A stretch of 61,779 nucleotides of DNA, taken from positions 1 to 61,779 of the IMG/VR virus record IMGVR_UViG_3300023246_000570. One strand, given 5' to 3'. This document shows, piece by piece, positions 898 to 61,213 of the stretch (the first letter of the stretch is position 1; every line of letters starts with the position of its first letter). This stretch comes from a virus. Its lineage: Duplodnaviria; Caudoviricetes. The notes under the pieces are model-generated. The model was given only the letters and a program-made list of their open reading frames with translations. It was not told the origin of the DNA and did not search any database. The translations under genes and the position numbers were made by a program.

Positions 898-1175
898 TAT
901 TTTAAGATTTTAGATATTGTTGATGGACTTACATTTAATATATAAGCTATTTTTTCTTGTGATATTTTATGTCCTTTGATTCTTAGCTTGGCAATCTTCT
1001 TTGCTAATTTTTTATCTTCTTGTGGTATTCTTGTGCTTGTTAAACGTATTTCTTTTTCAAATTCTGTTAGGTAATCATCTATTGCATAATACAAAAGTTT
1101 AGCACTCTTTACTCTATTAGATACTTCAATTATTCTTAGAGCTGTTTGTTTTTTTGACATAGTGTTAGATAGCAT
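897..1175 (-). CDS. Small protein with C-terminal helix-turn-helix
   Basis: C-terminus SQEKIAYILNVSPSTISKIL fits an HTH. Confidence 0.6.
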   Translation of the reverse strand: MLSNTMSKKQTALRIIEVSNRVKSAKLLYYAIDDYLTEFEKEIRLTSTRIPQEDKKLAKKIAKLRIKGHKISQEKIAYILNVSPSTISKILK

Positions 1176-1680
1176 TTAATTTACGTTCAACAGTACATAT
1201 AGTATCGTTATGGCTTCCTCCATGTGCAACTAACAGTATTTCTATTATTTCAAAACCCCTTACTTTGCCGACACCGGAACTATTCCAACCAAATGATATT
1301 ACAATTCCACCAGGTTTTATAATTCTTGATATTTCGTCAATGTGTTTTCTTCTCCAGCTACTTTGCGTTGTTTCTCTTGTTACTGGAATGCCTACATTTT
1401 TGTAACATTCAGACACCTGCCTTAATGAATATGGTGGGTCGTAAAATACAATGTCTTTTGAATTGTCATCAAATAGTTTTAAAAACTCAACAGCATCTAA
1501 ATTGTAATCTGTATTATATTCAGAATTTAAGTCATTTGTTATTTTTGCTATTCTGTTTTTATTTGCAAATGGGTCTATGCTTTCAAAGTTAAACTTATTA
1601 TATCTCCAAATAAGTCTACTTATACATTTAATATCAAATGTATTTGAATTTGGCATCGCCCATATTCTGTTAAATTCCAT
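1165..1680 (-). CDS. Small adenine-specific DNA methyltransferase
   Basis: SIDPFAN motif-I-like segment, catalytic DPPY, and the WAMPN N-terminus and AHGGSHNDTI C-terminus typical of this phage MTase family. Confidence 0.8.
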   Translation of the reverse strand: MEFNRIWAMPNSNTFDIKCISRLIWRYNKFNFESIDPFANKNRIAKITNDLNSEYNTDYNLDAVEFLKLFDDNSKDIVFYDPPYSLRQVSECYKNVGIPVTRETTQSSWRRKHIDEISRIIKPGGIVISFGWNSSGVGKVRGFEIIEILLVAHGGSHNDTICTVERKLNAI

Positions 1681-1697
1681 AATCTTACTATTTATGA

Positions 1698-2123
1698 CTA
1701 TCTCCTATAAACAAAGCACCCTTGATTTTCAGGACAACATGTATTAGGAGATATATTAACATTCTTTTTTTTTACTTCACAATACCCATCTTCTCTATCA
1801 AGAGCAATACAATCATTACAGCTACAATCAATTTTATGACATTCGCTTGCTTCGTATTTTTTAGACTCTAAAAGCAAGTCTTTACGGATAGGCTTCCAAA
1901 TAAATGGTGTCCAGTATCCTACTTTAACTCCGATTGTATCTCTTGTCAGCACCTCTCCTGACTCACAGCAAATATTAGATGGTTTCCAGTATTTGTGCTG
2001 TCCATGTTCAAAGAACTGCTCTCTGTCTTTTTTTTGTTTTATCCATTGCTTGTAGAAGTCTTCTAAGTTTTCTGCGAAGCAGGCTTGTATGAAATGGTCT
2101 CTTTCTTTCATGCTATTTTTCAC
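1698..2123 (-). CDS. Cys-rich hypothetical protein
   Basis: Many Cys pairs; its TAG stop lies inside a copy of the dispersed motif. Confidence 0.6.
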   Translation of the reverse strand: MKNSMKERDHFIQACFAENLEDFYKQWIKQKKDREQFFEHGQHKYWKPSNICCESGEVLTRDTIGVKVGYWTPFIWKPIRKDLLLESKKYEASECHKIDCSCNDCIALDREDGYCEVKKKNVNISPNTCCPENQGCFVYRR

Positions 2124-2267
2124 TATTTCGTAAAATCATTAAGTCTTGAAATTTTTTAGTTACCACATATAGTCTTGTCTTACACTCTGGACATTTGAAT
2201 TTGCATTTGTCGTCTATTGTAAATTCTATTTTGCATTTTCTACAGTAGAGTTTCATCCGAGATAGTG

Positions 2268-2877: not shown

Positions 2878-3096
2878 TTAATTAGCATTCATAAATTCTT
2901 TTTTAGTTGGTATTTTATATTTTGGATGACATATTTCAACCTCTGATACTTTGTGTTTTTTAGCACACTCCTTGCATATTGGCTGATTTGTTCTCCAATG
3001 CCAAAATTTTGTCTTATTGCCACAATTAAAGTAGCAGTTTTCATAAACTCCTAATTCCTCAAAATGTTCTTTCGGTTCTTCTACTAATGGTATCAT
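2878..3096 (-). CDS. Zn-finger-like hypothetical protein
   Basis: CxxxC ... CxxC pattern; the stop lies inside a motif copy. Confidence 0.55.
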   Translation of the reverse strand: MIPLVEEPKEHFEELGVYENCYFNCGNKTKFWHWRTNQPICKECAKKHKVSEVEICHPKYKIPTKKEFMNAN

Positions 3097-3263
3097 AATT
3101 TTTATTTAATTTTGTTAATCTTTAGGTATTTTAAAAATCCTTTCCAACACTCATCACACATATAATAATCTGAATTTGGTTTATCTTCATTCTTAACAGA
3201 CCTTAATTTTCCTTTATTGGACTTACATCCTGTTACACTACATTTCACAATATTCTATTTTTA

Positions 3264-3479
3264 CTATTTATGACTATTTCCTATAAAAAATCTTTCTACA
3301 CCAACAACAGAATTAAACAACACCTTTTTACCAAATATCAAATAAACTTTATTACTTGTCATACAGAACGTACCATTCTTAATACTACGCTTGATTTTTC
3401 GCAACTCACGTTTTGAAACATCCATTTTGTCGCTTACGTCTATTCCCATTTTGTGGGATATTGTTATTCTAATTTTCAT
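3264..3479 (-). CDS. Hypothetical protein
   Basis: ORF in the leftward operon; its last codons (NSHK*) are the dispersed motif itself. Confidence 0.5.
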   Translation of the reverse strand: MKIRITISHKMGIDVSDKMDVSKRELRKIKRSIKNGTFCMTSNKVYLIFGKKVLFNSVVGVERFFIGNSHK

Positions 3480-3480
3480 A

Positions 3481-3702
3481 TTAATAAATTTGTTTTACTT
3501 TTACAAGTCCTATATTAGTAGGAATGCCAATCCAAACTAAAAACTTTCTCCAACAATTATGCTTGTATGCTCTCAATACGAGTAATCCAACATCATCTGA
3601 TGCCATTATAACATCTCCTTTCACTACATACTTTGAATTTAACTGTATTTTAAATGTCTCATAATGCGAGACGATTCTACCTGCGTTTATTGTTTTATTC
3701 AT
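3481..3702 (-). CDS. Hypothetical protein (start probably MNKTIN)
   Basis: ATG immediately after the motif copy at 3704-3720. Confidence 0.5.
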   Translation of the reverse strand: MNKTINAGRIVSHYETFKIQLNSKYVVKGDVIMASDDVGLLVLRAYKHNCWRKFLVWIGIPTNIGLVKVKQIY

Positions 3703-3713
3703 GCTATTTATCA

Positions 3714-3929
3714 CTATTTCAGATTAATAATCTCTTTATACCTATACTGTTTCATATCATAAGATATAGCCCAACAATCTTCTCTTGTAAAGATTCTACT
3801 GCCTTCACATATACTATCAGCTTGTTCTTGCGTTTCTACAAATCCATGTGGCATATATCCACGTGCAGAGTCAATCGCATTTTCTAATTGGTTAATCCAA
3901 ATCTTTTCTATTAAATATATTGTTTTCAT
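3714..3929 (-). CDS. Hypothetical protein
   Basis: ORF bounded by motif copies at 3704 and 3931. Confidence 0.6.
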   Translation of the reverse strand: MKTIYLIEKIWINQLENAIDSARGYMPHGFVETQEQADSICEGSRIFTREDCWAISYDMKQYRYKEIINLK

Positions 3930-4922
3930 ATTATTTATGACTATTTCAGAACAAAGATAAACACAATACTATTTAGAACAAAACTAAACTACACTATTTC
4001 GAATAATCATTTCTAATTATATTCTTTTTAAAAGCATCACAAGGAACAGACTTCCCACGATTAGAGCCAAAGTGATAAGTAACTTTATACACACTATACT
4101 CTTTACAGTCTCTGTAGTCTGAGCTACGAAACCAATTAACAACTGTGTTCCTGCTCAAGTGAAGCCTCTCTGACAATACTCCCAAGTCAGCGAATGTTTC
4201 ACATTTATTATCTTCTATAAGTACAAACATGAGAGCAAAGATAAGTAATTTAATTTTCAATAGACACATCTATCCGTGTTTTCTATGTCCATTATTCATA
4301 TAGTTATCAACAATTGATGGGGTGGCATGTTTTCAATCGGAAGTCCAATTATATAAGCCTATTGCTACTGACTGTAAATTAACGATATGTGTACTATTTA
4401 ACACTATCTCGGATAATTAAACTTAATTTAGTAGGAAGAGAAGGTAGTGGAGACAAAAACAATCTTGGGACAAATCAAGCATTCTAATTTTTTGTTTTTC
4501 GTTTAATCGTAGAACAGATACAGGTTTGGGAAATTAGAATTGATTGGGGCTAATTACAAGTGGTTGATAGACAAGGATGGCTATTCAAGACTATCTCGTA
4601 AAATTAGAATTAGAGTTCTTAATCTAAAAAGCTGGATTCTATGTGTAGGGGACTATTGCACGTACATGAGGGGGTGCACCCTTCTAAATCGGAAGTGAGA
4701 TTACACAATTGCAATATGCTCAATGATGTTTTTTCAACTCTTGCATATTGGCTGTTATTGGTTGTATTCAGTCTCTATGTGGTTGCTCAACTCCATATGC
4801 TTGGAGTATTTGAGTTCTATCTGTGTAGTTGGCTTGGTTGCTCTGCTGTGTGGGAGATAACTGCACATAATTAACAAACAATCGTTATGTATTAAGAATA
4901 GGGGAGGGGCAATTATAAACCT

Positions 4923-4950
4923 ATTTAACATAATATAAATTATAAGACTG
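4923..4950 (-). other. dif-like XerC/XerD recombination site
   Basis: Minus strand reads CAGTCTTATAA-TTTATA-TTATGTTAAAT: an exact canonical XerD arm, a 6-bp spacer and a XerC-like arm ending in ATAA. Confidence 0.75.
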
Positions 4951-5099
4951 AATATTGCAGGTTAATGCAGTCCATAGAAACGAGCCACCAGCCCAGAACT
5001 ATTGACCATTGTAAACTATACAGTTAAACAGATTGAAGAGCCTGAACAAACTGATAGTTATATTTATATATGTGTGATTGTGCTATATTAACCCAATAT

Positions 5100-5670
5100 T
5101 ACCCAATTACTTTTTTATTCTAATTCTAATTTACACAATCTAATTCTAATTTCAGTTCAACAATTAGTTTTAGATTTATATTTAATTTGTCTTCTCTCTT
5201 GTGTCTCTATCCTTGTTCAATTCAAATACTATTATTATCCGAAATAGTCATAATTAGCTAAATTCAGCATTAAAAGCACTTAACACAACAGAATCGGCTT
5301 CACACGGTAACGTTTAAGCAAAGAACTCAACTGGGTTGATATGCTACGACCTTCTAATTTTACCCTTGCTTAAATCTAATTTAATTCTTTGCTCTTTGGT
5401 ATTAGTTATTATATAAGCTATTCTAATTTAATCTAATTCTAATTTTCTGACATAGTCATAAATAGTAAGTTACACAATTCTAATTCTAATTAGCATTTAT
5501 TCTAATTTCTAATTTAGTTTAATTTTGTTCTAAAATTAGAAGTTAGTCTAATTTAATGACGTCTTAAACAGCTTATTCTTATTTAGACTAAATATAAACA
5601 AGGACATTAGTCTGTATCTTATTAATTAATAATATCTTACACTATGTCAGAAAATTAGAATATTGCTTGT
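5100..5670. repeat. AT-rich non-coding tract with clustered (A)ATTCTAATT repeats at the leftward/rightward transcription divergence
   Basis: TTCTAATT/AATTAGAA recurs around 5118, 5143, 5421, 5438, 5478, 5500, 5534 and 5653; no plausible ORF. Confidence 0.6.
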
Positions 5671-5731
5671 TTTCGCTTTAGTCCTGTATTATCTTTATGG
5701 AGTCATAAGACATTAATTAAAACTTTGCAAA

Positions 5732-6173: not shown

Positions 6174-6437
6174 ATGAGAACATTTAGTTTATTATCCGAC
6201 AATAAAAAGACTTTAACAAATTGTATTGTTATTGAAAACATAAATAGTTTATTTGAGACTATTTCAGAACTTAAAAGCTATAACACAACTGTAGCAAAAT
6301 ATAATCATGATACTAATAAAATGCAAGTATTCGGTTATTACTCACTTACAACAGCAAAACACATTAATTCATTTTTAAAATTTTACGGTTTTGATAAATG
6401 TACTAAAACTCAATTGAAAAATTATAATAGCCTGTAA
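6174..6437 (+). CDS. Early-region hypothetical protein (SYNT.VA...YSxTTxKH family)
   Basis: LKSYNTTVA and GYYSLTTAKHI motifs, seen in small early phage proteins. Confidence 0.7.
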   Translation: MRTFSLLSDNKKTLTNCIVIENINSLFETISELKSYNTTVAKYNHDTNKMQVFGYYSLTTAKHINSFLKFYGFDKCTKTQLKNYNSL

Positions 6438-6554
6438 TGTTTGCAAAGTTCATTACAGAGCTTTGTGCCTCCTTTCCTTCGGGTTAGGAGGTTTTACAAG
6501 TAGAAAAAGGATTTTTTGAAATAGTCATAAATAATAATTAAAAACTTTGAAATT

Positions 6555-7049
6555 ATGAAAACAATTGAAATTAAACTTTACAAATTTAGCGAACTATCAA
6601 AAGAAGCAAAACAAAAAGCCATTACAGAGCTTTGTGATATTAATGTAAATTATGACTGGCGGGAATCTTCTTATGAAGATGCAAAAAATATCGGATTAAA
6701 AATTACTGGTTTTGATCTTGACAGGGAAGGTTATTGTAATGGTGAATTTTTACTATCGGCTAACGAAGTATGCCAAAATATTTTCAATGAACATGGGGAA
6801 ATGTGCGAAACTTACAAAACTGCTGAAAGTTTCATGGAAGAATGGCAACCGGTATTTAACGAATATATGAGAACAGAAGAAGGGGAGGACGAATTACTGA
6901 AATTAGAAAATGATTTTTTAAAAAGCATTTTAAAAAATTATTATATACTTTTATCAGGAGAATATGATTATAGAGGAAGTGAAAAGGCAATAATTGAAAC
7001 TATTGAAACAAATGAGTATGATTTTACCGAAGATGGCAAATTATATTAA
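6555..7049 (+). CDS. Acidic early phage protein (YKFSELS...NEYDFTEDG family)
   Basis: Recognisable termini of a widespread uncharacterised phage family; flanked by motif copies at 6518 and about 7050. Confidence 0.75.
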   Translation: MKTIEIKLYKFSELSKEAKQKAITELCDINVNYDWRESSYEDAKNIGLKITGFDLDREGYCNGEFLLSANEVCQNIFNEHGEMCETYKTAESFMEEWQPVFNEYMRTEEGEDELLKLENDFLKSILKNYYILLSGEYDYRGSEKAIIETIETNEYDFTEDGKLY

Positions 7050-7099
7050 TTAACACTATTACGTAAAAGAATTATAAACAATATTAAAACTTTGCAAAA

Positions 7100-7228
7100 A
7101 TGAAAACTTTAGAAATTGAAATACTACAAACAAAAAAAGAAATTGCTTTAATAAAATTAAGAACTGTATTATATTTAATGTTAACTTTTGTTGTTAGTGT
7201 TAGTATATTTTATTATAATATGAAATAG
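7100..7228 (+). CDS. Small membrane protein (42 aa), not in the ORF track
   Basis: AACTTTGCAAAAATG leader, hydrophobic C-half, TAG inside a motif copy. Confidence 0.55.
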   Translation: MKTLEIEILQTKKEIALIKLRTVLYLMLTFVVSVSIFYYNMK

Positions 7229-7254
7229 TCATAAATAATTTAAAAATTAAAGAT

Positions 7255-7413
7255 ATGAAAACAATAGTTTATTTAAACGGAGAAAAACATTCCGCATGGT
7301 ATAGCAAAGCGGAAGCAATTAAACAAATGGAAGTTTTAGGTAATAATGGTTACAGTAATTTTCATTATGATTTTATAGATCATAATTATGAAAACGGACA
7401 TTATTTTATTTGA
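7255..7413 (+). CDS. Small hypothetical protein (52 aa), not in the ORF track
   Basis: AAAGATATG leader; lies between motif copies at 7222 and about 7412. Confidence 0.55.
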   Translation: MKTIVYLNGEKHSAWYSKAEAIKQMEVLGNNGYSNFHYDFIDHNYENGHYFI

Positions 7414-7555
7414 GACTATCTCATATAAAAACACTTCGCTGTTAAAATAGAAACTCCGAAATAATAAAGAGTACAGTTGCAATTACTGTTACAGCGACAA
7501 AGGGAAAGCCAGACACCCTAAAAAAGAAGGCAATAATTTAAAAAACTTTGAAATT

Positions 7556-8083: not shown

Positions 8084-8189
8084 ACTTCTTTTACCTCTAC
8101 CCCCTGCCTCGCTTCGTTAATTCGTTGGGAGGTATTGGGATTGAGAGTATTAAGATAATACGAAATAGTCATAAATAAAAACTAAAATT

Positions 8190-8839: not shown

Positions 8840-8967
8840 GCCCGTAAAGTTTGCAAAGTTCTTTACGGACTGCCCTGCTTAATTAAGTTTAAGTGGGGTT
8901 TGCGGTTGAAGGATGGTTTTATTATCCGAAATAGTCATAAATAATATTAATTAAATAAATTAAAGTT

Positions 8968-9198
8968 ATGGAAATAAAAAATGTAATATCAGACGAAGAG
9001 TTAGAAAACAGGTTGGTAGCCTTACGGAAAGATAATTGGAAAATTGACAATATGGCAAAAGGTTTAAGTGGAAACGCTAAACAGATTGTAGACAATTGGT
9101 TTGATGCTACAAGATTAATGTTATTAAGAATGCTTAAGGTTAAAGAAAATGATAAATATAATTTTGTTTATCATGACTTGGAAAACGAACCTATTTAA
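8968..9198 (+). CDS. Hypothetical protein
   Basis: ORF flanked by inverted motif copies (8928 forward, 9191 reverse). Confidence 0.65.
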   Translation: MEIKNVISDEELENRLVALRKDNWKIDNMAKGLSGNAKQIVDNWFDATRLMLLRMLKVKENDKYNFVYHDLENEPI

Positions 9199-9487
9199 CA
9201 CTATGTCAAAAAAGAACACAAATATAGGCGAAGCCGAAAACCTTAAATAGAGTAGGCAAACTAAATTTAGAAATAATGAACCAAACAGAAAAAGTACAAA
9301 GTATGTTAAACAGCGAAATTAACAGCTTACAGGTCTTAACTCTTAAAAGAGAGGTTGCATTGAGGAAATTCAAAAGAAGTGCTTATATAGTACTCTTATT
9401 CATTGCAACGAGTAGTATAATACTTGGATGTTGTAATGTTATTTGAGATAGTGATAAATAGTAATTATTAATTTAAAATATAAAGTT

Positions 9488-9899: not shown

Positions 9900-10199
9900 A
9901 TGAAACTAAAAAAAGGAAAAAAAATAGATAATCTTAAAATAAGGAAACAATTAAACTTGTTCTATTCTTATCATGGTTATTCAAAAACACTAACAGATAT
10001 AACAAATGTTAGATTTTTTGAAACAAAAGAATATTATACGGTTGAAATAACAACACATAGACCAGGAATAGTAATAGGTAAAGGAGGTAGGGATATAGAC
10101 GAATTAGAAAAGTACCTAAATGATGATTGTTTTAATAAGCCTGTTAAAATACTTTTATTAGAATGCCAATTATGGTTAAAATTATATAGCCCTAATTAA
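9900..10199 (+). CDS. Stand-alone type II KH domain protein resembling the ribosomal protein S3 N-terminal domain
   Basis: VEITTHRPGIVIGKGGRDIDEL matches the S3 T.RPG..IGKxG signature with the GxxG loop; the S3 C-terminal domain is absent. Confidence 0.75.
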   Translation: MKLKKGKKIDNLKIRKQLNLFYSYHGYSKTLTDITNVRFFETKEYYTVEITTHRPGIVIGKGGRDIDELEKYLNDDCFNKPVKILLLECQLWLKLYSPN

Positions 10200-10242
10200 C
10201 ACTATTACAGAAAAGAATTATTAATTAAAATAAATAGAAATT

Positions 10243-10666: not shown

Positions 10667-10858
10667 ATGAAAGATAAAACATACATTATACACACTACAC
10701 ATAGTAACCTCTTGGTTAAACAAGGAGATAGAGTTGCTTATTTTACAGGGTTAAGACATCATTTAAGAAAATCAGATTTAGATGAATGGAAGTATGCAGT
10801 TGCTTATTGGGAGAAACAAGTTATTGAAACAGAAGAAACTTTTAATTTTACGAGATAG
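10667..10858 (+). CDS. Hypothetical protein
   Basis: ORF whose TAG lies inside the motif copy at 10852. Confidence 0.55.
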   Translation: MKDKTYIIHTTHSNLLVKQGDRVAYFTGLRHHLRKSDLDEWKYAVAYWEKQVIETEETFNFTR

Positions 10859-10893
10859 TGTTATATAGCACTATGTCAGAAAAATCTTAAATT

Positions 10894-11133
10894 ATGAAAG
10901 ATAAAGAAATATTAGAAGCAATGAATAAAAAATCTGCATTAAACTATCTAAAAAAAGCACAAAAACTTTTAAAAGAGATAAACTTTTGTTCTCCTGGAAT
11001 AACTAAAGCGATAAATGATATAAAAGGAGTAGAAGATAAAAATATTGTAATGATTGAAAAAGAAATTGAAAGTTATAAGGAGATAGATATAAATGTTATT
11101 ACAAATGATTATCGTATTATTAATAGGAAATAG
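10894..11133 (+). CDS. Hypothetical protein
   Basis: ORF whose TAG lies inside the motif copy at 11127. Confidence 0.55.
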   Translation: MKDKEILEAMNKKSALNYLKKAQKLLKEINFCSPGITKAINDIKGVEDKNIVMIEKEIESYKEIDINVITNDYRIINRK

Positions 11134-11149
11134 TGTTAAATAAAAAGTT

Positions 11150-50256: not shown

Positions 50257-51004
50257 CTATTGGTTGTTGGTTTACGCTAACTACTCTTCCTTTTGGTGCT
50301 TCCTCTGTTTTTGTTTCACTCGCATCATTGAGTCTATCTTGTGGAACTAACAGCATAAATCTACCTAAGTCTAATACATTCTTAACTACATAATCAAATC
50401 CTTCTTCTCCCATGTCTAAGGCACTATCAAGCGAACCTGTAGCAAATGGATTAAAAGTTGTTATTAGTCCAACTTCCAAAGTATTTACATTTACTTGTTC
50501 TATCCCAAGTAATGGAATATAGTTTCCTGTTCTGAAAAAATAAGGATTGCTTGGTTTTGGCTCTTCGTAATCACTCATATATATACGCTTTGCTTTTGTT
50601 GGAGTTGTGCGAGTAAATCTAACTCCTGCAAAAGATGGTTGACAAGCTACGTCAAAATCAGCATAGCTTATGTAATCTATTCCTTCGTCTCTGAGATAGT
50701 CATAAATAGTTTCAGGTAATACAATATATTTTCTTCCCTTCACAATATTTGGACTAACGCTAACTGTTGGAACTACTACAGGAACATCAGAATAAATAGC
50801 TAAATAATTACCACTATCTGCTGATTTTCTCTGTCCGCTTACTCCTTGATTTATATATTCTCTTTGACTTCCTTTTTCATACCTGTACTTGTTGATAAAA
50901 AATCCACACCATTGTACCATAAGTAAAAATGGTATCTGTTTGTCATCACCCAATTGTTTTAATTGAATCTGAACTGCTCCTGCTATTTGTCTTAAAGTTG
51001 TCAT
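50234..51004 (-). CDS. Tail ring/tubular protein
   Basis: MTTLRQI... N-terminus and PQDRLND C-terminal motif typical of crAss-like ring proteins. Confidence 0.65.
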   Translation of the reverse strand: MTTLRQIAGAVQIQLKQLGDDKQIPFLLMVQWCGFFINKYRYEKGSQREYINQGVSGQRKSADSGNYLAIYSDVPVVVPTVSVSPNIVKGRKYIVLPETIYDYLRDEGIDYISYADFDVACQPSFAGVRFTRTTPTKAKRIYMSDYEEPKPSNPYFFRTGNYIPLLGIEQVNVNTLEVGLITTFNPFATGSLDSALDMGEEGFDYVVKNVLDLGRFMLLVPQDRLNDASETKTEEAPKGRVVSVNQQPIDEEEYAV

Positions 51005-51845: not shown

Positions 51846-52799
51846 TTATTTGAACATTTCTTTTTCTATTGCACTAACGGCTCTTTGAGCTGCTTGGTCA
51901 GTACTTTCCTGAACAACTTTACCTGCTAATTTATTTGCAAGTTGAGAACGCATTACGTTCACATCGTTTCCTATTGGGATGCCTTCATCTCTACATCTTT
52001 TTATAATCGTTGGTTGACTCTGCGTAGTCAATGTACCCATAATTTTTGACGCTGCTTGTACTCTGACTGCATCAGCATTTATAGCTTCATTAACTGTAAG
52101 CCAAAATTCAATATTAAATAATGAATGAGATTTGAGCCATGTAATTTCTTTTTTACTATGAGTCGTAAAAGAACAAAAATGATTTAATGTTTCTTCTTTT
52201 TGATTTCCTCTTTTTCTATCAGTTGCCTGATACTCGAAATAAAATGGTATATTATATGGAGAAGCTACATAAACTCCCATACGTTTATCACCATTTAATA
52301 AAAATCCTGTGCCGTAAGATGAAAAAGTTATACCTACATCCAAGAAGTCCTTTTTATCTATATCTCTTTCATTTCTTAAAAAAGCAACTCCATCACTTTC
52401 TTTTTGTGCTTTTACAATAGCCTCTGCAAATTCTGTGCTGTCAAACCTATTTGAAGATGGTTCTTTGCCTTCCATTTGCTCAACCTTTAGAGATAGCTCT
52501 TCTATCTTCTGTAAGGCGGCAGCCATTACATCTGCTTCTGTAACTTTGGGTTTTGGTTTTGGTTTCGGTTTTGGTTTCGAGATAGTCTTCAAGTGCTTCT
52601 CCATAGCAATCTTTAAATCGCCTTCTGAAACACCAATAGCATCTTGAACTGCTTGTTTATCGTTAACGTTTTGTTCTGTGATTACACCCCTTAAACTTGG
52701 GACACTCTTTCCTCGACTAAAAACTTCACCTGTCTGGTCAACAAACAAATTTCTAACTTGCCACATCTTGGGCGGATTAATTGGTTTTCTTTCTTCCAT
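51846..52799 (-). CDS. Hypothetical protein downstream of capsid (start revised to MEERK)
   Basis: ATG after an A-rich leader, downstream of the capsid terminator; KPKPKPKP linker. Confidence 0.65.
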   Translation of the reverse strand: MEERKPINPPKMWQVRNLFVDQTGEVFSRGKSVPSLRGVITEQNVNDKQAVQDAIGVSEGDLKIAMEKHLKTISKPKPKPKPKPKVTEADVMAAALQKIEELSLKVEQMEGKEPSSNRFDSTEFAEAIVKAQKESDGVAFLRNERDIDKKDFLDVGITFSSYGTGFLLNGDKRMGVYVASPYNIPFYFEYQATDRKRGNQKEETLNHFCSFTTHSKKEITWLKSHSLFNIEFWLTVNEAINADAVRVQAASKIMGTLTTQSQPTIIKRCRDEGIPIGNDVNVMRSQLANKLAGKVVQESTDQAAQRAVSAIEKEMFK

Positions 52800-54199: not shown

Positions 54200-55390
54200 T
54201 TAATCGAAAACAGATTTTTCCACGCTGTCAGGAATAACTTTCTTTCTCCAATCTTCCACCACTTCATTCCTTGTACTTTGTGAAGCTTCACTGCTTGGTT
54301 TTTCCGCAAAAGGAGTATCTTTTCCTCTTGAAATAATGTCTTCATTTGCTTTTGATGTTGCCTCATTCTTTACCTTCTGAGTATTTTTAACAATTTCTTG
54401 TTTGCCATACTTTATTAAAGCAAGACTTTCTGCGGCTTCCTTTTTAAGAAAACCTTTTTCGTCATAAAATAAAGATAAGATAGCATTACTTCCTCCTTTC
54501 AATGTTCTACTGATTTCTTTTTTCTGTATTTCATTAAAAGAAAATTCATTATTAAGATACGAGATAGACTCATTTAGAGATTTTTCATAGTCTGCTGTTT
54601 GTATCTTGTTGCTGTCATTAACCTTAGCAATAGCAGAAGTTCGTTGTTTATCAAATTTTGTCTTATCACCTTCGTACTTCGACTTTACTATATCGACATA
54701 ATCTCTGAATTTTTCTGGTTCATCATCTTTCATTGTCCGATAGTCTTCCATGCTGGAGAACTTGTCAGATTTGTAATGATTCAAAACTTTAAATTCTTGT
54801 TGATTTTCAAAAGGTATAGAGAAGTCAAATTGCTGATTAAATAAATCTCGCATGTGTTCTCTATAATCTCCACCTTTATCTTGCACAAGTAATATACTTG
54901 CTATATCTTCCGGTAAATTGGTTAAGTAATTTGTTAGTTGTTCTGCTTGACCAGCAGAGTCTCTTAAAGCATCATTATTTTCCGAGATAGCCTTAAAGTC
55001 TTTTGTAAAAGATTGGAAATCCTTATTTGTAGTTCCTGTCTCCTCGTTTAAATAATTTAGTAAGTCTTCTTGTGTTTCAAATTTCTGTGGTGTGTTGTCC
55101 ATTTTTGAAAAAGGACTCTTTATCTTTTCTTCTACAGGTTTCTCAGCAGGCTTTACTTCTTCTGTTGGCTTTGCTGTTTCTGTAGGTTTAGTTTCTGTTG
55201 GGTTAACTGTTTCAGTAGGTGCTGGTGTTTGTTCGGGTGTTTGTACTGGCGGTGTTTGCTCAGTAGGTTTTTTTAGCTCTCCCATTTTTTTCTGTAGTTC
55301 AGGAACGTTAACTCCTGTTCCTCCAAATAAAGAACTTAATGCTGATTGTTTTGCCTCTTGGCTTTGTTCATCTTTTATAGGTTCTGCCAT
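54200..55390 (-). CDS. Capsid scaffolding protein
   Basis: Acidic, P/T/E-rich disordered N-terminus and helical body, directly upstream of the capsid gene. Confidence 0.7.
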   Translation of the reverse strand: MAEPIKDEQSQEAKQSALSSLFGGTGVNVPELQKKMGELKKPTEQTPPVQTPEQTPAPTETVNPTETKPTETAKPTEEVKPAEKPVEEKIKSPFSKMDNTPQKFETQEDLLNYLNEETGTTNKDFQSFTKDFKAISENNDALRDSAGQAEQLTNYLTNLPEDIASILLVQDKGGDYREHMRDLFNQQFDFSIPFENQQEFKVLNHYKSDKFSSMEDYRTMKDDEPEKFRDYVDIVKSKYEGDKTKFDKQRTSAIAKVNDSNKIQTADYEKSLNESISYLNNEFSFNEIQKKEISRTLKGGSNAILSLFYDEKGFLKKEAAESLALIKYGKQEIVKNTQKVKNEATSKANEDIISRGKDTPFAEKPSSEASQSTRNEVVEDWRKKVIPDSVEKSVFD

Positions 55391-55708
55391 TTTGTTAAAT
55401 TTTGGTTTTTAATTTTAATTCTAATTTTCGGTGCAAAGATAACTAATTTTAGATAATATACAATAAATAATTTGGAATAATTCTAAATAGAGTTATAATT
55501 ATCTGAAATAGTGATAAATAAAATTAGAGTCTAATTTGTACTTGTTCTAAATAAGAAATTGTATACATTTGTAATGTTAAATTAGAATCTAATTAACACT
55601 ATCTCGTATGAAATTAACAAAAAAAGAATTAAAAGAATTTAGAGACAGTATCATATTCATGTATATTGTAGGATTTGCAATACTAATTTATGGCTTAATA
55701 ACCAAAAC

Positions 55709-55894
55709 ATGAACAGCGATATTAACGATGGTACTTGCTGTGCTATATGTGAAAAGTATTTTGAAAATCCTATCCAAGAGGACGAAGATGAAATCGCAGG
55801 GTACTCTCATGGGTATCCTGTTGTTTGTGTAGAATGTTGGACAAAAGATTGTAAATATAAAGTTGCTGTTGTGGATGTTTTTCTTCCGAGATAG
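55709..55894 (+). CDS. Small Cys-rich protein
   Basis: CxxC ... HGYPVVCxxC; TAG inside the motif at 55888. Confidence 0.6.
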   Translation: MNSDINDGTCCAICEKYFENPIQEDEDEIAGYSHGYPVVCVECWTKDCKYKVAVVDVFLPR

Positions 55895-56094
55895 TGATGG
55901 ATAAAATTGGAATTATGAAAAAAGTAATAAAAAGAATTATAGGAATAGTATTGCTATCGTCAGCTTTGGGCGGACTTATTGTTATGACGTGTATTCAGAT
56001 TGGCACTACCGAGGGTCTTATTGCATGGGGGATTTCATTGGTATTAACTATAATAATTGTAGTTGGCGTTTACTTGATTGTATGGAAAAACTAA
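55894..56094 (+). CDS. Small two-TM membrane protein
   Basis: Two hydrophobic helices; stop inside the motif at 56091. Confidence 0.6.
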   Translation: MMDKIGIMKKVIKRIIGIVLLSSALGGLIVMTCIQIGTTEGLIAWGISLVLTIIIVVGVYLIVWKN

Positions 56095-56109
56095 TTAACA
56101 CTATTTCGT

Positions 56110-56301
56110 ATGAAAAAGAAACTAACATCATATCAGAAACTAAAATTAGAAAACGAGAAACTAAAAAAAGATATATATAATATAATCGAAATGCCAAATA
56201 CGCTTGTTGGTGAAACAACAATAAAAAGATATAAGTTTAAGTTTGACACTGCAAAGGCATTTTGGTTTGGCAGTAGAACTATTCAACACTATGTCGTATG
56301 A
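56110..56301 (+). CDS. Hypothetical protein
   Basis: ATG two bases after a motif copy. Confidence 0.55.
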   Translation: MKKKLTSYQKLKLENEKLKKDIYNIIEMPNTLVGETTIKRYKFKFDTAKAFWFGSRTIQHYVV

Positions 56302-56394: not shown

Positions 56395-56832
56395 ATGAAA
56401 AAACTATTAATCGTAATCTTGCTATTTGCCACTATCTCGTGTAAAAAAACTGACACAGAAGAACCAACAGATAGCACAACTCAAAGCCAAGAAGAAGTAA
56501 TAGAGAATGGTACTGTTAAAATAAACGTATCATATACTCAAACGTATTTTCCTGGAAGCTGTATTACTAACAGCGTAGGAATAGGCTATTCTTCCACAGA
56601 CATAGCAAATGATGCTTTCTTTGAAACAAGTAATTATCACATGCCTCATTCTTATATTTTTGAATTAGAAGAAGGAACGTACTATTATAAAGTTACAACA
56701 AAATGTAATTGTGGCAATAATCCTACATGTACTAATGATGGATACTCACAAAGCAATCTTTATACAAGATATAAAAACGGATCGTTTACTATTGTCGGTG
56801 GACAAGAAGCAGTAGTAAATGCTTATTTTTAA
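56395..56832 (+). CDS. Lipoprotein
   Basis: MKKLLIVILLFATIS-C lipobox followed by a KKTDTEE Bacteroidota export-signal-like stretch. Confidence 0.75.
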   Translation: MKKLLIVILLFATISCKKTDTEEPTDSTTQSQEEVIENGTVKINVSYTQTYFPGSCITNSVGIGYSSTDIANDAFFETSNYHMPHSYIFELEEGTYYYKVTTKCNCGNNPTCTNDGYSQSNLYTRYKNGSFTIVGGQEAVVNAYF

Positions 56833-56998: not shown

Positions 56999-57547
56999 AT
57001 GGGAAAAAGAAAAAGTTTAACAAAAAAAATAAGATTTGAAGTTTTTAAAAGAGATAATTTTACCTGTCAGTACTGCGGAAAAACTCCTCCATCTGTTACA
57101 TTGGAAATAGACCACATTAGACCTGTATCTAAAAAAGGAACTAACAACATCAACAATCTTGTTACTGCATGCTTTGATTGTAATAGAGGTAAAACTAATA
57201 TTGAATTAGATAAACTACCCAATACGATTAATCAAAATTTTGAAATATTAAAAGAACAACAATTACAATTAGCAGAATATCAAAAATTAATAAACAAAAT
57301 TGAAAAAAAATTAGAAAAAGATATTAATGAAATCGACCAAGTCTATTCAGAATGGCATCCTGATTATAAGCTATCAGATAAATTCAAGCAATCAACTGTT
57401 AAAATGTTCTTGAAAAAAATAGAGAAAAATAAAATAAAAGACGCTATGAATATTGCTTGCTCAAAAATGAATGATAGCGATGCAAGTATTAATTATTTTT
57501 GTGGCATTTGCTGGAAGATAATAAAGGGGGATGTTTATGGAGAGTAA
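56999..57547 (+). CDS. HNH endonuclease
   Basis: RFEVFKRDNFTCQYCG...LEIDHIRPVSKKG.NNINNLVTACFDCNRGK. Confidence 0.9.
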   Translation: MGKRKSLTKKIRFEVFKRDNFTCQYCGKTPPSVTLEIDHIRPVSKKGTNNINNLVTACFDCNRGKTNIELDKLPNTINQNFEILKEQQLQLAEYQKLINKIEKKLEKDINEIDQVYSEWHPDYKLSDKFKQSTVKMFLKKIEKNKIKDAMNIACSKMNDSDASINYFCGICWKIIKGDVYGE

Positions 57548-58274: not shown

Positions 58275-59158
58275 AATTCCAATACTATAGCAACGATGCT
58301 ACAAAGCCAAATCCATTAGGATATGTAGAAATTGATGACTTCCTTAATGCAATTAGAAATCCAAAAGATAAAGTAAAAGAAATACTTAAAAAAATCCAAG
58401 TAGAAGAAGATGCCACAAAGAAAGCTAATTTAAAAACACATTTGTATGGATTTACTCCATCGGCTACGTTTGAGAACCGCAGAGCCTATGATAATATAAT
58501 TAACTTCACAGGACTCGCTGTATTAGACTTTGACAAAATAAGCAATGCTGACGATTTTAAACATTACCTGTTTGATACATACAAATTTATTATTGCAAGT
58601 TGGCTTAGTCCATCTTTAAAAGGAATAAAAGCATTGGTGAAAATTCCAGTAGTAAAAACAATAAAAGAATTTAAAAGTTATTTTTATGGGTTAGCATACG
58701 AGATGGAGGTATATAATGGATTTGACCCAACAACACAGAACGCATCACTACTACTGTTTATTGGTTGGGATAAAGACATTCTAATTAGAAAAGACTATTC
58801 TACGTGGAAAGGAAAGGGTAAAAAAATAAATAGCTTTGATGATAGCCCAACTATTAAAAAACCTAATTTTGTCAGTACACACAAACAGAAGCAATGGGTT
58901 ATTAATTGGATAACAGATAAGATTAATGGAATTACAGATACAGGACACCCTGTAGTGAGAGATAACTGCATTAGTCTTGGTGGATATGTAGCAAGTGGAT
59001 ATATTTCTTTTCCAGAAGCACAAGGCTTGGTTCACTATTTAATATCTATTAATGGCTATCTGAAAAAAGGAACAAATGGCTATAAGAAAACAGCAACAAG
59101 TGCAATAAACGAGGGAATGAAAAAACCTATAATATTTGGAAACAATGAGAAAATTTGA
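58250..59158 (+). CDS. BT4734/VirE N-terminal-like primase
   Basis: FTPSATF..RR...FTGLAVLDFD and WLSPSLKGIKALV motifs. Confidence 0.75.
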   Translation: MAQEEQQIKFQYYSNDATKPNPLGYVEIDDFLNAIRNPKDKVKEILKKIQVEEDATKKANLKTHLYGFTPSATFENRRAYDNIINFTGLAVLDFDKISNADDFKHYLFDTYKFIIASWLSPSLKGIKALVKIPVVKTIKEFKSYFYGLAYEMEVYNGFDPTTQNASLLLFIGWDKDILIRKDYSTWKGKGKKINSFDDSPTIKKPNFVSTHKQKQWVINWITDKINGITDTGHPVVRDNCISLGGYVASGYISFPEAQGLVHYLISINGYLKKGTNGYKKTATSAINEGMKKPIIFGNNEKI

Positions 59159-59987
59159 AAAAGATGAATTTCTAAAAGAGGAGTTCAAAGAAGATGTAAG
59201 CGACCTTAATAAGATAATCAAAGATACGCTTATTGATTTAGATAAACAGTATACAGAACCTATTCCATATCTAAGCATATCGCAAGGATTAAACAATATA
59301 AGAATATGTACAGAGGGAAACATATCAGCTATAACAGGTAAAGCTAAAACTAAGAAATCATTTTTCCAAACTATGCTAATTGCAAGTGCTGTTGATAATA
59401 CCACGCTGGGACATAAAATAAAAGGAAGAGTACCGGAAGGGAAAAGAATGATATTGGTATTCGATACAGAACAAGCAACGTATGATGTCTATAGGGTAGC
59501 AAATAGAGTTAAAAGATTAATAGGACATAACCCAAATAATTTAGGAGTATTTAATCTACGTGGAATAAATTCAAAAATAATACTTGACTTATTAGAATTT
59601 GTTTTAAAGAGATTTAAAGAAGTTGGCATTATCTTCATAGACCAAGTAGCAGATTTAGTTAGTTCTATTAACAGCGAAGAAGAAGCTGTTTCTGTTGTAC
59701 GCTATTTAGAAATGCTTACAAAGAAATATGAATGTCATATATGCTGCGTTATTCATCAGAACAAAGATAATAATTATGCAACAGGACATCTTGGAAGTCA
59801 AATATTAAAAAAGGCAGAAACAATAATTAATGTTGATAAATGCAATAGCGAGGTATCTAAAGTATATCCGGCAGCAACAAGAGGTCTTGAATTTGAAGCA
59901 TTCGGTATGAAGATAAAAGATGGATTGCCAGTAGTCTTGGATGATGAAGAATTTGAATCGTATGATGAAAAAGAAAAGCGATTTTAA
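59136..59987 (+). CDS. RecA-fold AAA_25-type helicase/ATPase
   Basis: Walker A variant GKAKTKKS, FDTEQ, Walker B IFIDQ, VIHQNK and GHLGS motifs. Confidence 0.8.
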   Translation: METMRKFEKDEFLKEEFKEDVSDLNKIIKDTLIDLDKQYTEPIPYLSISQGLNNIRICTEGNISAITGKAKTKKSFFQTMLIASAVDNTTLGHKIKGRVPEGKRMILVFDTEQATYDVYRVANRVKRLIGHNPNNLGVFNLRGINSKIILDLLEFVLKRFKEVGIIFIDQVADLVSSINSEEEAVSVVRYLEMLTKKYECHICCVIHQNKDNNYATGHLGSQILKKAETIINVDKCNSEVSKVYPAATRGLEFEAFGMKIKDGLPVVLDDEEFESYDEKEKRF

Positions 59988-60084
59988 CGGCATCGCAATT
60001 TAGACTTGTTCTTAATAGAATTTATTGTATGTTTGCATAAGATTATAATTATTTGAAATAGTGATAAATAGCAAAGATTAAAAA

Positions 60085-61170
60085 ATGAAAAACTACAAAA
60101 ACTTAAAATTTCACGAAATACAGCCACACACAGATAAGTGGTTTAAATTTAGAGAAAACGGAATAGGTGGAAGTGAACAATCTGCTGTACTGAGTATGAA
60201 CCCATACAAGTCTTCTATGCGAGTCTATGCCGAAAAAACAGGATACGTACAAGCCAAAGAGGTAAAAAACGAAGCAACCTATCATGGCACACATCAAGAA
60301 GCCTACGTAAAAGATTTTATTTGGCAATACCACGATGGAACAGAAGATGGATATATCAACCAAATTCCACAAAGAACATATCGCAACATCCCTGCTTACG
60401 CAGTAAATCCAAAGTACCCTCATCTGTTTGCAAGTGTAGATGGACTAATAGACAAAGGACAAGCAACCTTAGATGGAGAGATACTTGTAAAAGACGGAAT
60501 ACTTGAAGCTAAAACTATAAACGGTATGTATGCTAAGATGTGGGATTCAGGCGTTCCTATTTACTACATTATTCAAGTAATGCACTATCTGATAGTATAT
60601 GGATTAGAATATGGCGAGATAGTCTCATTTATTGATGGTAGAAAAGCAAGTCTTTATTCTGTGTCTATGGACACCGAATTGGCAGAAAAAATAGTAAGTG
60701 CTTCTTCGCAGTTTTGGAACGAGAGAGTTGTTCCAGGTAAAAAAGTTGTAGAAGAATGGAACAAGGCTAAAAAAAGTGGAGAGAAGTTAGATCAGCTACA
60801 AGAAGAAATAGACCGGCTTATGCCTCCTCCTGATTCTTCTGATGATTGTAAATTGTTTTTAAAAGAGATTTACAGAACAGAACTTGATAGTATGATAGGA
60901 GATAGTCATACTTACTCTACTGCAAGAAGAGTTCATTTGCTTAACAGAATGATAGCTGTACTAACTACAGAAAAAACATATTGTAATAATATCTTACAAG
61001 AGAAGTTTGTAAAACAGAGAGTTGAGAAATTAACCTTTGATGACAAAGGATATATCAAATTTACAAAAAGAGGGAACTCGGAGTTACCATCTCTACATAA
61101 TGGAGTCTCAAAAGATGGTATTGATTCAGATTTAGCAAAACATATACTGTCTAAGACTGAGATTTTTTAG
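60085..61170 (+). CDS. YqaJ-like viral recombinase / lambda-type exonuclease
   Basis: W...R..GIGGSE, ASVDG, LEAKT and YIIQVMHYL motifs. Confidence 0.88.
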   Translation: MKNYKNLKFHEIQPHTDKWFKFRENGIGGSEQSAVLSMNPYKSSMRVYAEKTGYVQAKEVKNEATYHGTHQEAYVKDFIWQYHDGTEDGYINQIPQRTYRNIPAYAVNPKYPHLFASVDGLIDKGQATLDGEILVKDGILEAKTINGMYAKMWDSGVPIYYIIQVMHYLIVYGLEYGEIVSFIDGRKASLYSVSMDTELAEKIVSASSQFWNERVVPGKKVVEEWNKAKKSGEKLDQLQEEIDRLMPPPDSSDDCKLFLKEIYRTELDSMIGDSHTYSTARRVHLLNRMIAVLTTEKTYCNNILQEKFVKQRVEKLTFDDKGYIKFTKRGNSELPSLHNGVSKDGIDSDLAKHILSKTEIF

Positions 61171-61213
61171 TATCTGAGATAGTGTTAAATAGTAACTTAA
61201 AAATTTAAAGATT

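Follow-up and report, generated by a model that had tools for sequence, protein, structure and literature searches.

Short repeats that stand at the borders of exchangeable genes have been described in several mobile systems. The pdif modules of Acinetobacter plasmids are bounded by asymmetric sites of ~28 bp, whose strict alternation in orientation gives two module types; single modules are replaced between relatives (PMC13141974), and insertion elements target the sites (PMC10132070). Integron cassettes carry attC sites, with GTTRRRY as the core consensus. In T4-type phages, the PeSL motifs are regulatory repeats at ORFan borders that mediate indels (PMC2839356). The stoperators of mycobacteriophage L5 form a dense protein-binding network and keep one orientation relative to transcription. 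The stretch of DNA analysed here (the window; 61,779 nucleotides, IMG/VR record IMGVR_UViG_3300023246_000570, a phage from salt-lake metagenomes) carries about 76 copies of a 28-base motif at the borders of its small genes, and related strains differ by whole genes swapped, lost or gained at these motifs. An original prediction, made from the letters alone, had counted about 70 copies of TTWTHY-GARATAGTS-WTAAATAR at gene borders in both orientations, and had proposed a site-specific cassette system comparable to pdif modules or integron cassettes, with a stoperator-like network as the alternative.

The observation behind that proposal is confirmed. The core GARATAGTS occurs 64 times as an exact match on both strands against 2.28 expected, with a largest count of 7 in 100 dinucleotide shuffles. 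A 30-nt weight matrix built from these sites finds 76 sites at 15 bits or more (0.0 in 10 Markov shuffles), 78 at 12 bits (0.3) and 83 at 10 bits (1.0). Of the 76 sites, 41 lie in 1-15.4 kb, matching the predicted density of about 40. The conserved span is about 28 nt: T at -9, -6 and -3, Y at -1, GARATAGTS, then WTAAATAR. Positions G1, A2, A4-T8, T15 and A16 are invariant or nearly so, positions 3, 9, 10, 13 and 17 take two set alternatives, and ATAG occurs twice, 10 nt or one helical turn apart.

Placement at gene borders is equally clear. For the 62 sites at 20 bits or more, the centre lies a median of 15.5 nt from the nearest ORF border, against 209 nt for random positions, and 63% lie within 30 nt against 11.5%. 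Only 20 of 76 sites lie more than 30 nt inside an ORF, against 79% of random positions. A site is present at 31 of 47 junctions between small genes and at 9 of 26 in the large-gene blocks. The five genes named in the original prediction as bracketed (1165-1680, 2268-2546, 8968-9198, 41503-41823 and 42673-43026) are flanked by an inverted pair in 5 of 5 cases. The stop codon of the upstream ORF lies inside the 17-mer at 22 of the 76 sites, as TAG of GARATAG in forward copies and as TAA read from the complement of GTTA in reverse copies. A gene start follows in both orientations, 1-26 nt after the 3' end of co-oriented copies and often 2 nt after the 5' end of anti-oriented copies.

The left end of the window holds a first array (0.6-4.7 kb), in which alternation of orientation is absent (5 of 12 steps, p 0.77). 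Its first copy, 773-789 (+), is opposite to the flanking genes and scores 22 bits. Cassette E is bordered on the left by 1156-1172 (+), an anti-oriented copy of the GACATAGTG variant that overlaps the stop of 1165-1680 and the start of 897-1175, and on the right by the co-oriented 1688-1704 (-), 7 nt before the ATG of 1165-1680. The co-oriented 2113-2129 (-) lies 1 nt before the ATG of 1698-2111. Cassette A lies between 2259-2275 (+, anti) and 2557-2573 (-, co), and cassette B between 2869-2885 (+, anti; the copy itself differs in contig L184, one of the strain variants discussed below) and 3264-3280 (-, co). The right border of cassette C is 3704-3720 (-, co), 1 nt before the ATG of 3481-3702. 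The co-oriented 3931-3947 (-) also lies 1 nt before an ATG, with a TATCTTTG box just upstream, and the 5' flank of the co-oriented 3984-4000 (-) is the left border of cassette D. Copies in non-coding region follow at 4394-4410 (-, 36 bits), 4581-4597 (-), 5241-5257 (+), 5449-5465 (+) and 5632-5648 (-).

In the second array (5.7-15.4 kb), orientation alternates in 20 of 22 steps. Anti-oriented copies on the minus strand are 6249-6265, 7046-7062 (GTAATAGTG), 7406-7422, 9191-9207, 10192-10208, 11197-11213 (inside ORF 11150-11776), 12026-12042, 13720-13736 and 15091-15107. Co-oriented copies on the plus strand are 6518-6534, 7222-7238, 8162-8178, 8928-8944, 9445-9461, 11127-11143, 11570-11586 (inside ORF 11150-11776), 13514-13530 and 14078-14094, the last with strain variants that change positions 9 and 10 together. 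A weak copy of 16 bits lies at 11367-11383 (-). A compact convergent pair at 10852-10877 (10852+ and 10877-), with cores 8 nt apart, has the same layout as the empty site of cassette E, and a second one at 15326-15362 (15326+ and 15362-), 3 nt apart, is empty here. The divergent close pair at 12105-12150 (12121- and 12134+) folds as a hairpin (-13.9 kcal/mol, z -4.1).

Copies are sparser in the remainder of the window, and many are intragenic. These include 17574-17590 (-, anti, 21 bits), 20219-20235 (+, co, 27 bits), 28980-28996 (+, anti), 50693-50709 (+, anti, 25 bits) and a full-strength copy of 32 bits at 36415-36431 (+, anti) inside the 2266-aa gene. Weak intragenic copies lie at 25228-25244, 30159-30175 and 37993-38009 (all + and anti), and at 44464-44480 (+), 45203-45219 (-), 52579-52595 (+), 54561-54577 (+), 54984-55000 (+), 60616-60632 (+) and 60899-60915 (+). 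The lone plus-strand gene 31485-31793 has 31187-31203 (+) upstream, and 31786-31802 (-) lies just after the stops of 31485-31793 (+) and 31812-38612 (-). Next come the co-oriented 41130-41146 (+), abutted by a TATCTTTG box, the co-oriented 41307-41323 (+, AAAATAGTG), the divergent close pair 41449-41494 (41465- and 41478+; hairpin -20.1 kcal/mol, z -6.8), 41816-41832 (-, anti), 42334-42350 (+, co) and 42633-42649 (+, co). The copy 43019-43035 (-) lies between the convergent genes 42673-43026 (+) and 43042-47901 (-). Towards the right end are 55505-55521 (+, co), 55589-55605 (-, anti, between a TACATTTG box and an ATG 2 nt away), 55888-55904 (+, co), 56091-56107 (-, anti, 2 nt before the next ATG), 56279-56295 (-, anti) and 56422-56438 (-, anti, inside ORF 56395-56832). 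The co-oriented 60055-60071 (+) lies 19 nt after a TATGTTTG box and 13 nt before the YqaJ gene, and 61176-61192 (+, co) scores 34 bits.

Two different TnpB elements sit in compact inverted motif pairs. One, a TnpB (IS605 OrfB) element at 47921-49481 (-) with its tnpB ORF at 47991-49190, has as its lower flank 47904-47920 (+), an anti-oriented copy between a TATATTTG box and the ATG of the 1619-aa gene (2 nt from the ATG), and as its upper flank 49482-49498 (-). The other occupies the 15326-15362 pair in a strain-variant contig. A solo 43-nt copy of the tnpB 3' end lies at 41242-41284. The original prediction had seen no recombinase; this holds for tyrosine and serine recombinases, resolvases, integrases and Y1 transposases within the contig, which is judged 87% complete, so a recombinase could lie in the missing part. 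Besides TnpB, a YqaJ-type exonuclease gene (60085-61170, +) encodes the only recombination enzyme recognised, and no annealing protein was found (RecT and ERF absent).

Comparison of co-occurring strains supports the cassette idea by the criterion set beforehand, namely whether gene gain and loss have their breakpoints at the motif. Six events (A to F) in which a gene is deleted, replaced or inserted were reconstructed from three strain-variant metagenome contigs, L196, L184 and L136; event F is the TnpB element present in L136. Nine of the 11 breakpoints lie within 7 nt of a motif copy in the window, a tenth lies at a motif that the incoming cassette brings, and the eleventh lies at a degenerate copy. 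Event E, a deletion, was found independently in Logan contigs of two runs. A joint that goes back 820 nt (6535->5716), seen in three runs, has the 3' end of 6518-6534 (+) as one side and joins it to a degenerate box with a shared leader; this is what a tandem duplication or an excised circle would give. The link is not exclusive, however: of the 21 distinct loose-end places listed, only 4 lie within 40 nt of a motif (23% expected), so many strain differences start inside genes.

The earlier interpretation is supported in part: its cassette component is supported, whereas its likeness to integrons is not. The GTTRRRY match is a by-product of one variant of the 3' half; it is present only because 16 sites read GTGTTARATAR. 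The sites have no attC-like or dif-like dyad, with a mean of 1.0 of 6 complementary pairs in the dif register and at most 4 of 62 sites reaching 5 pairs in any register, against 6 for E. coli dif and 4 for B. subtilis dif. Identity between strains ends at different motif positions (12/13, 16, 17, 18, inside the core, or 7 nt into the 5' flank), not at one crossover point. The pdif comparison fits the architecture but not the site itself. The stoperator alternative fails on orientation, as originally predicted (32 co-oriented against 25 anti-oriented copies), although a binding-site role is still likely.

The preferred reading, held at a probability of about 0.45, is that the motif is a lineage-specific, asymmetric junction box that separates almost every small (early or accessory) gene from its neighbour and is first of all a binding site for a sequence-specific DNA-binding protein of the phage or host. 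The motif, its placement, its alternation and the cassette polymorphisms with breakpoints at the boxes are established by the analysis, while protein binding, the regulatory role and the recombination enzymes are inferred from sequence alone, without an identified binding protein and without RNA or binding data. The small helix-turn-helix regulator encoded at 897-1175 (-), whose start overlaps the copy at 1156 (+), is only a speculative candidate binder. Position-specific conservation fits protein recognition rather than mere homology. Single copies have no RNA structure (z 0.0 to +1.0) and do not resemble the host-type promoter, and the box lies upstream or downstream of host-type TAnnTTTG boxes in either orientation (47904+, 55605-, 60055+, 41130+). 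Small genes lack such promoter boxes (7% of 55, random 5.5%), whereas 30% of 20 large genes have one. Varying ends of identity within the box are expected for recombination anywhere in a shared sequence, and the PeSL motifs of T4-type phages are a precedent for such a regulatory repeat that also serves as the short homology for exchange. Yet exact identity between copies is short, with a median shared run of 8 nt over all 1891 pairs, a median of 18 nt for the best partner and a maximum of 25 nt, which is little for ordinary homologous recombination. Co- and anti-oriented copies also differ systematically (position 3 A: 21/32 against 6/25; position 10 A: 17/32 against 2/25), so orientation may matter for function. 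Five complete relatives have no such motif (1-3 cores each, which is chance level), so conservation gives no test of function.

A dedicated pdif-like system is doubtful but not excluded. In this view, a recombinase encoded in the missing ~13% of the genome or supplied by the host would recognise the asymmetric site and exchange modules bounded by inversely oriented sites, with compact inverted pairs as docking sites. The shared architecture, the alternation in the main array, the replacement of single modules, the two TnpB elements and the limited identity between copies speak for it, and the 3' half TGTTAAAT/TGTTAATT equals the outer 8 nt of published XerD arms. Against it stand the missing dyad, the lack of a tyrosine or serine recombinase in the contig, and the variable end of identity; in events A, C and F the 3' half stays with the backbone, not with the module. 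Event E is the loss of a single module, which recombination between inverted sites cannot do, and no strand-changing joint appears among the 13 joints listed. It is less likely still that co-oriented copies are phage-specific promoters or promoter-proximal activator sites for early or middle genes, read by a modified host RNA polymerase or an unrecognised phage enzyme, with reverse copies as stop or antisense signals and cassette exchange as a side effect. The 32 co-oriented copies before start codons, the lack of host-type boxes at small genes, late operons that have TAnnTTTG boxes but no co-oriented motif directly upstream, and a box-gene-reverse box layout resembling promoter-gene-terminator morons would fit. 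However, at three genes the ATG is 1 nt after the 17-mer (2129-, 3720-, 3947-), so the start site would have to lie inside or upstream of the motif. In addition, 25 strong copies point against transcription and are followed by genes that must be read through them, and one full copy lies inside the 2266-aa gene. No sigma factor or DFDxD-type polymerase motif was found, the 2266-aa protein looks like a polyvalent ejected protein (a lead only), and there is no match to the Bacteroidetes -7 box or enrichment of sigma-70-type sites.

A selfish short repeat, like REP/REPIN elements or miniature derivatives of IS200/IS605 elements, which would have spread through intergenic DNA with a transposase supplied in trans and without a role for the phage, is unlikely. 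Its lineage specificity, its occurrence in both orientations and often as inverted pairs, and its association with TnpB elements and the solo tnpB 3' end are compatible with this idea. But single copies are neither palindromic nor folded, start and stop codons of neighbours are built into the motif at fixed places, and a position-specific consensus is kept across 76 copies and between strains. No Y1 transposase is present, and no enrichment was seen in the loci fetched by scans of viral, metagenome and prokaryote genome collections, other than strain variants. Least likely is an RNA-level signal, in which the forward copy in the 5' leader and the reverse copy after the stop would close each message into a panhandle, for processing by a double-strand RNase or for stability. 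The many bracketed genes, the strong folding of close pairs and a KH-domain protein encoded at 9900-10199 might suggest it, but systematic differences between forward and reverse copies at positions 3, 10 and 13 would put mismatches into the duplex, genes also lie between a reverse and the next forward copy, and copies occur upstream of mapped promoter-like boxes.

In the preferred reading, the bound protein would control or insulate expression of the small genes, and the box would work in either orientation because a gene start follows it closely in both. Alternating orientation would be favoured because neighbouring direct repeats would delete genes, and compact inverted pairs would be the empty state of a cassette slot, where TnpB insertion elements also land. 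Because the same box stands at most junctions in all co-circulating strains, it is also where unrelated genes get joined, marking the seams of an exchangeable gene-cassette system. Short-homology recombination between boxes, plausibly helped by the YqaJ-type exonuclease and an unidentified annealing protein, would swap, add or remove whole genes of this phage while keeping their expression signals.

The contig has 31% G+C and is rated 87% complete; its 3' end (61500-61779) breaks off inside a 27-nt tandem repeat of a DUF7666 gene, where the assembly probably broke. It is present almost completely in the contigs of 24 runs labelled salt-lake metagenome, none of which is on record as RNA. Genes lie in blocks, with small genes at 0.6-4.3 kb (minus strand), 5.7-15.4 kb (plus), 41.1-43.0 kb (plus) and 55.5-61.8 kb (plus), and large virion genes between them. 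Recognised products include a P22-type portal, a TnpB, an HNH endonuclease, a BT4734-like primase domain, an AAA_25 ATPase, a YqaJ exonuclease, a small helix-turn-helix regulator and a KH-domain protein. Two HNH-type endonuclease genes are present at 297-596 (+) and 56999-57547 (+), one with a Pfam match and the other recognised by eye from its Cys/His pattern, and these could add homing-type gene conversion to the mosaicism. Two giant ORFs, 43042-47901 (-) and 31812-38612 (-), have no Pfam, PHROG or PDB sequence match; language-model look-alikes are crAss-type "muzzle" proteins (0.90) for the 1619-aa ORF and large polyvalent ejected proteins (0.93) for the 2266-aa ORF, which are leads only.

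Only 2 of 74 ORF starts have a Shine-Dalgarno-like word upstream (7.9% in random windows). TAnnTTTG boxes, the Bacteroidetes -7 promoter element, mostly TATATTTG and often with TTTG about 20 nt upstream, precede the large-gene operons (41024, 47935, 51772, 55441 and 31123 on the minus strand; 16985 and 19829 on the plus strand). The host is therefore inferred to be probably a Bacteroidetes bacterium.

The original prediction, a genome-wide junction motif at gene borders, holds as an observation. The core GARATAGTS occurs 64 times against 2.3 expected, and a 30-nt matrix gives 76 sites at 15 bits or more against none in shuffles, 41 of them in the first 15.4 kb. The conserved span runs from T at -9, -6 and -3 through GARATAGTS to WTAAATAR, and ATAG occurs twice, 10 nt apart. 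Sites hug ORF borders, with a median distance of 15.5 nt against 209 nt for random positions; 31 of 47 small-gene junctions are occupied, against 9 of 26 in the large-gene blocks, and 20 of 76 sites lie deep inside ORFs, against 79% of random positions. All five genes that had been named as bracketed by an inverted pair were confirmed.

Among sites of 20 bits or more, 32 point with the flanking genes, 25 point against them, and 5 lie in the non-coding 4.3-5.7 kb region. Co-oriented copies end 1-26 nt before an ATG, and the upstream ORF often stops at the TAG inside GARATAG. Anti-oriented copies hold the upstream stop (TAA read from the complement of GTTA), and the next ATG often follows 2 nt beyond the core, within the motif's T-rich flank. 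In all, 22 of 76 sites contain the upstream stop, and a gene start therefore follows the box closely in either orientation. The two classes differ in sequence: position 3 is A in 21/32 co-oriented against 6/25 anti-oriented copies, position 10 is A in 17/32 against 2/25, and position 13 is G in 2/32 against 9/25. Covariation between motif position 3 and the flank was looked for by eye and not seen.

Orientation alternates in 20 of 22 steps in the 5.7-15.4 kb array (p 0.0001), but in only 5 of 12 steps in the 0.6-4.7 kb array; over the whole genome the count is 40 of 61 (p 0.013). Genes lie both between converging and between diverging copies. Single copies have no predicted RNA structure (z 0.0 to +1.0), and only three close inverted pairs fold clearly better than shuffles: 41465/41478 (-20.1 kcal/mol at 41440-41500), 12121/12134 (-13.9 at 12100-12160) and 10852/10877 (-11.3 at 10840-10895). 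The clearest intrinsic-terminator-like site of the small-gene array, a 17-bp stem followed by seven T at 12273-12310 (+), lies after a very short ORF that follows motif copy 12134+. An Rfam match to the DUF805b RNA motif (45 bits, gathering score 35.6) at 9224-9258 (+) lies between motif copy 9207- and ORF 9276-9446. Between the two divergent small-gene blocks, a 1.4-kb stretch without long ORFs (4300-5700) holds five motif copies, 12 of the 25 copies of a second repeat, AATTAGAAT (25 found against 3.4 expected), and G+C-richer segments that may be structured RNA. It could be an origin or control region, and AATTAGAAT also ends several 5' leaders just before the ATG.

Strain variation links the motif to gene exchange. 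A metagenome scan with one 17-mer returned three short contigs rich in the motif, with 11, 9 and 5 sites, which are 99-100% identical to parts of the window but differ by whole segments. Six events were reconstructed from these strain-variant contigs, named L196, L184 and L136. In event E, the gene 1165-1680 is absent in L196, leaving a 26-nt compact inverted pair whose two cores share one 8-nt A+T spacer; the same joint (1167->1692) stands in Logan contigs of two runs. In event A, the gene 2268-2546 is replaced in L184 by a 55-aa ORF, and identity ends at the 3' ends of both flanking copies. In event B, 2886-3263 is replaced by a 58-aa ORF, and here the motif copies themselves differ (positions 3, 12 and 14 on one side, position 9 on the other). 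In event C, the gene 3481-3702 is replaced by a 132-aa ORF that brings its own reverse copy. In event D, the gene 3994-4269 is replaced in L184 and L196 by 714 nt encoding a T5orf172/MUG113 protein and a Cro/C1-type regulator, with the breaks at the 5' flank of copy 4000- and at a degenerate copy near 4296. In event F, a second TnpB-type gene with an IS605 HTH domain (L136 76-585, minus strand; 38% identical to the window's over 163 residues) is preceded by a TATATTTG box and interrupted by a stop after 170 codons; the element directly follows copy 15326+, where the window has an empty pair 3 nt apart (slot at 15343).

Nine of the 11 breakpoints lie within 7 nt of a copy in the window. The window's own TnpB (IS605 OrfB) element, with its gene at 47991-49190 (-), also lies between an inverted pair, and the sequences flanking it would join into a compact pair with a degenerate right arm. 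The last 43 nt of the 3' end region of this gene, the likely guide-RNA scaffold end, are repeated exactly at 41242-41284 (+), between two co-oriented motif copies, with no tnpB beside it and followed by a different flanking sequence; this copy may be a solo guide-RNA cassette.

The link between strain differences and the motif is not exclusive. In a subset of 21 distinct loose-end places of the run contigs, only 4 lie within 40 nt of a copy (23% expected). A joint going back 820 nt (6535->5716), present in contigs of three runs, joins the 3' end of copy 6518+ to a degenerate copy with the same leader at 5716, and could be a tandem duplication or a circle. No strand-changing joint appears among the 13 joints examined. 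Joints with a short side of 21-24 nt (1066->9147, 2574->12698, 7408->10237, 7542->8949, 9937->14580 and 10914->11049) were set aside as likely cross-matches of repeats, and two others (7257->7489 and 6138->6099) remain unexplained.

Outside these strain variants the motif was not found to recur in the sequences scanned. No relative was detected by DNA or protein in the GenBank phage set, or by single proteins in IMG/VR or metagenomes, and a 29-nt string of the variant cassette was not found in IMG/VR. Motif scans of IMG/VR and of parts of the metagenome and prokaryote genome collections gave only single chance matches apart from the three contigs, and the motif was not seen in the prokaryote loci fetched. 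A literature search for the 9-mers gave only unrelated hits. The motif is not a family trait: 46 IMG/VR loci encode portals 33-45% identical (best segment), and the five complete relatives examined hold 1-3 cores each, with no comparable dispersed repeat. A de novo 9-mer search in these five found only terminal or coding tandem repeats and a codon-level 9-mer. One complete relative (G001, 67.8 kb, 31% G+C) has terminal arrays of a 12-nt repeat (AACTTAGAA core, 31 copies) at 1-170 and 67500-67768 within its direct terminal repeats, and relative G004 has a 15-nt coding tandem array at 19761-20060, similar to that at the end of the contig.

Among described systems, the PeSL (promoter-early stem-loop) cassettes of T4-type phages offer a close parallel (Arbiol et al. 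2010, PMC2839356; Comeau et al. 2014, PMC4122927). There, about 50 repeated intergenic motifs are concentrated in hyperplastic regions directly upstream of ORFans, include the stop of the upstream gene and the start of the downstream gene, and coincide with insertions, deletions and replacements between close relatives, while circle-type junctions occur between nearby copies. Breakpoints between close relatives lie at the motif here too. However, PeSLs are a host sigma-70 promoter plus a G+C-rich stem-loop terminator whose function has been tested, whereas the present unit is a 28-nt asymmetric box without promoter consensus or structure, which occurs in both orientations and largely alternates, in a phage of a probable Bacteroidetes host. 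The motif consensus lacks TAnnTTTG, with TTTG at -33, in either orientation, and also lacks TTGACA/TATAAT; only 2-3 of 32 co-oriented copies abut a TAnnTTTG box, and sigma-70-type sites are not enriched (87 found, 91 expected). Nothing points to a phage polymerase or sigma factor. A virion RNA polymerase was considered, but no DFDxD motif was found and the 2266-aa and 1619-aa proteins had no PDB or Pfam match. Searches for HU/IHF, sigma-70, RecT and ERF families returned no match. The phi14:2 preprint reports no common motif at that phage's early promoters.

The layout is strikingly like the pdif sites and dif modules of Acinetobacter plasmids, in which asymmetric sites of about 28 bp flank every accessory module, orientation alternates so that two module types alternate, single modules are replaced between relatives, and insertion elements target the sites (PMC13141974). 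The outer 8 nt of the XerD arm even equal the motif's 3' half. The site itself does not fit: dif sites have two 11-bp arms around a 6-bp spacer with complementary inner arms (positions 7-12 and 17-22, at least 4-5 pairs), but the motif gives a mean of 1.0 of 6 pairs in the register aligned on TGTTAAAT, and at most 4 of 62 sites reach 5 pairs in any of 25 registers, against 6 for E. coli dif and 4 for B. subtilis dif. A single module can be lost, leaving two overlapping sites, and the replicon is a lytic-type phage in which no Xer or other tyrosine recombinase was seen. XerC/XerD recombine such sites with the crossover in the spacer. Identity between strains ends here at motif positions 12/13, 16, 17 or 18, inside the core, or at -7, which argues against a single crossover point.

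As in integrons, promoterless small genes are bounded by a recurring site, and the stop codon often lies in the site, but the integron comparison made in the original prediction was not supported. No imperfect-palindrome attC structure exists in single copies, breaks are not at the G/TT of the GTTRRRY core, where crossover fixes the ends of integron cassettes, and GTTRRRY occurs in only 16 sites, as part of GTGTTARATAR. No IntI (PF00589), resolvase or Y1 transposase (PF01797) is present in the contig, although at 87% completeness absence from the phage is not proven. The lack of palindromic units and of a Y1 transposase likewise does not match REP/REPIN elements, whose units are imperfect palindromes mobilised by a RAYT transposase. 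Stoperators of cluster A mycobacteriophages and start-associated sequences of cluster K also place dozens of copies of a short asymmetric motif in short intergenic gaps, overlapping starts and stops, and stoperators are bound by one phage protein, the repressor. Those motifs keep one orientation relative to transcription, whereas the split here is 32 co-oriented against 25 anti-oriented copies among the 57 sites of 20 bits or more in oriented blocks, and cassette exchange at stoperators has not, to our knowledge, been described. A gene for a helix-turn-helix regulator (897-1175) overlaps a copy, but a binding role for its product would be speculative on present evidence.

The predicted cassette system is partly supported. 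The strain data show that boxes are the seams of gene exchange; that the box is bound by a protein, that it influences expression, and which enzymes recombine it are inferred from sequence alone. The position-specific consensus and helical phasing point to a protein-binding box, and its use in both orientations directly before gene starts, and on either side of promoter-like boxes, points to action on DNA rather than RNA. Short-homology recombination at a regulatory box, as proposed for PeSLs of T4-type phages (PMC2839356; PMC4122927), is tentatively favoured, and alternation would be selected because direct neighbours would delete genes. The weak point is the short exact identity between copies, as the best partner has a median of 18 nt and the maximum is 25 nt. 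Given the pdif-like layout, a dedicated, still unseen recombination system is not excluded, although it is judged unlikely. In its boldest form, equally unlikely, the phage would run a true cassette platform of its own kind, in which asymmetric 28-bp sites without any dyad, set in alternating orientation, define two alternating module types and compact inverted pairs are empty docking slots. An unknown enzyme, not a Xer- or IntI-type recombinase and possibly acting with the RNA-guided TnpB nucleases that occupy such slots, would then move single genes in and out between co-infecting genomes. That would be a phage counterpart of integrons and pdif modules, with a new site and a new mechanism, and of high interest if true.

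How phages acquire and shuffle their many small orphan genes is a long-standing question, and apart from PeSLs of T4-type phages, few cases tie mosaic joints to a defined sequence. Here a single short box marks two thirds of the small-gene junctions, and natural strain variants differ by whole genes exchanged at the boxes, so the process can be studied directly. The layout mirrors pdif modules of resistance plasmids although the site is unrelated, which suggests that alternating asymmetric sites are a general solution for stable but exchangeable gene arrays. The recurrent landing of TnpB elements in empty slots links RNA-guided nucleases to this traffic.
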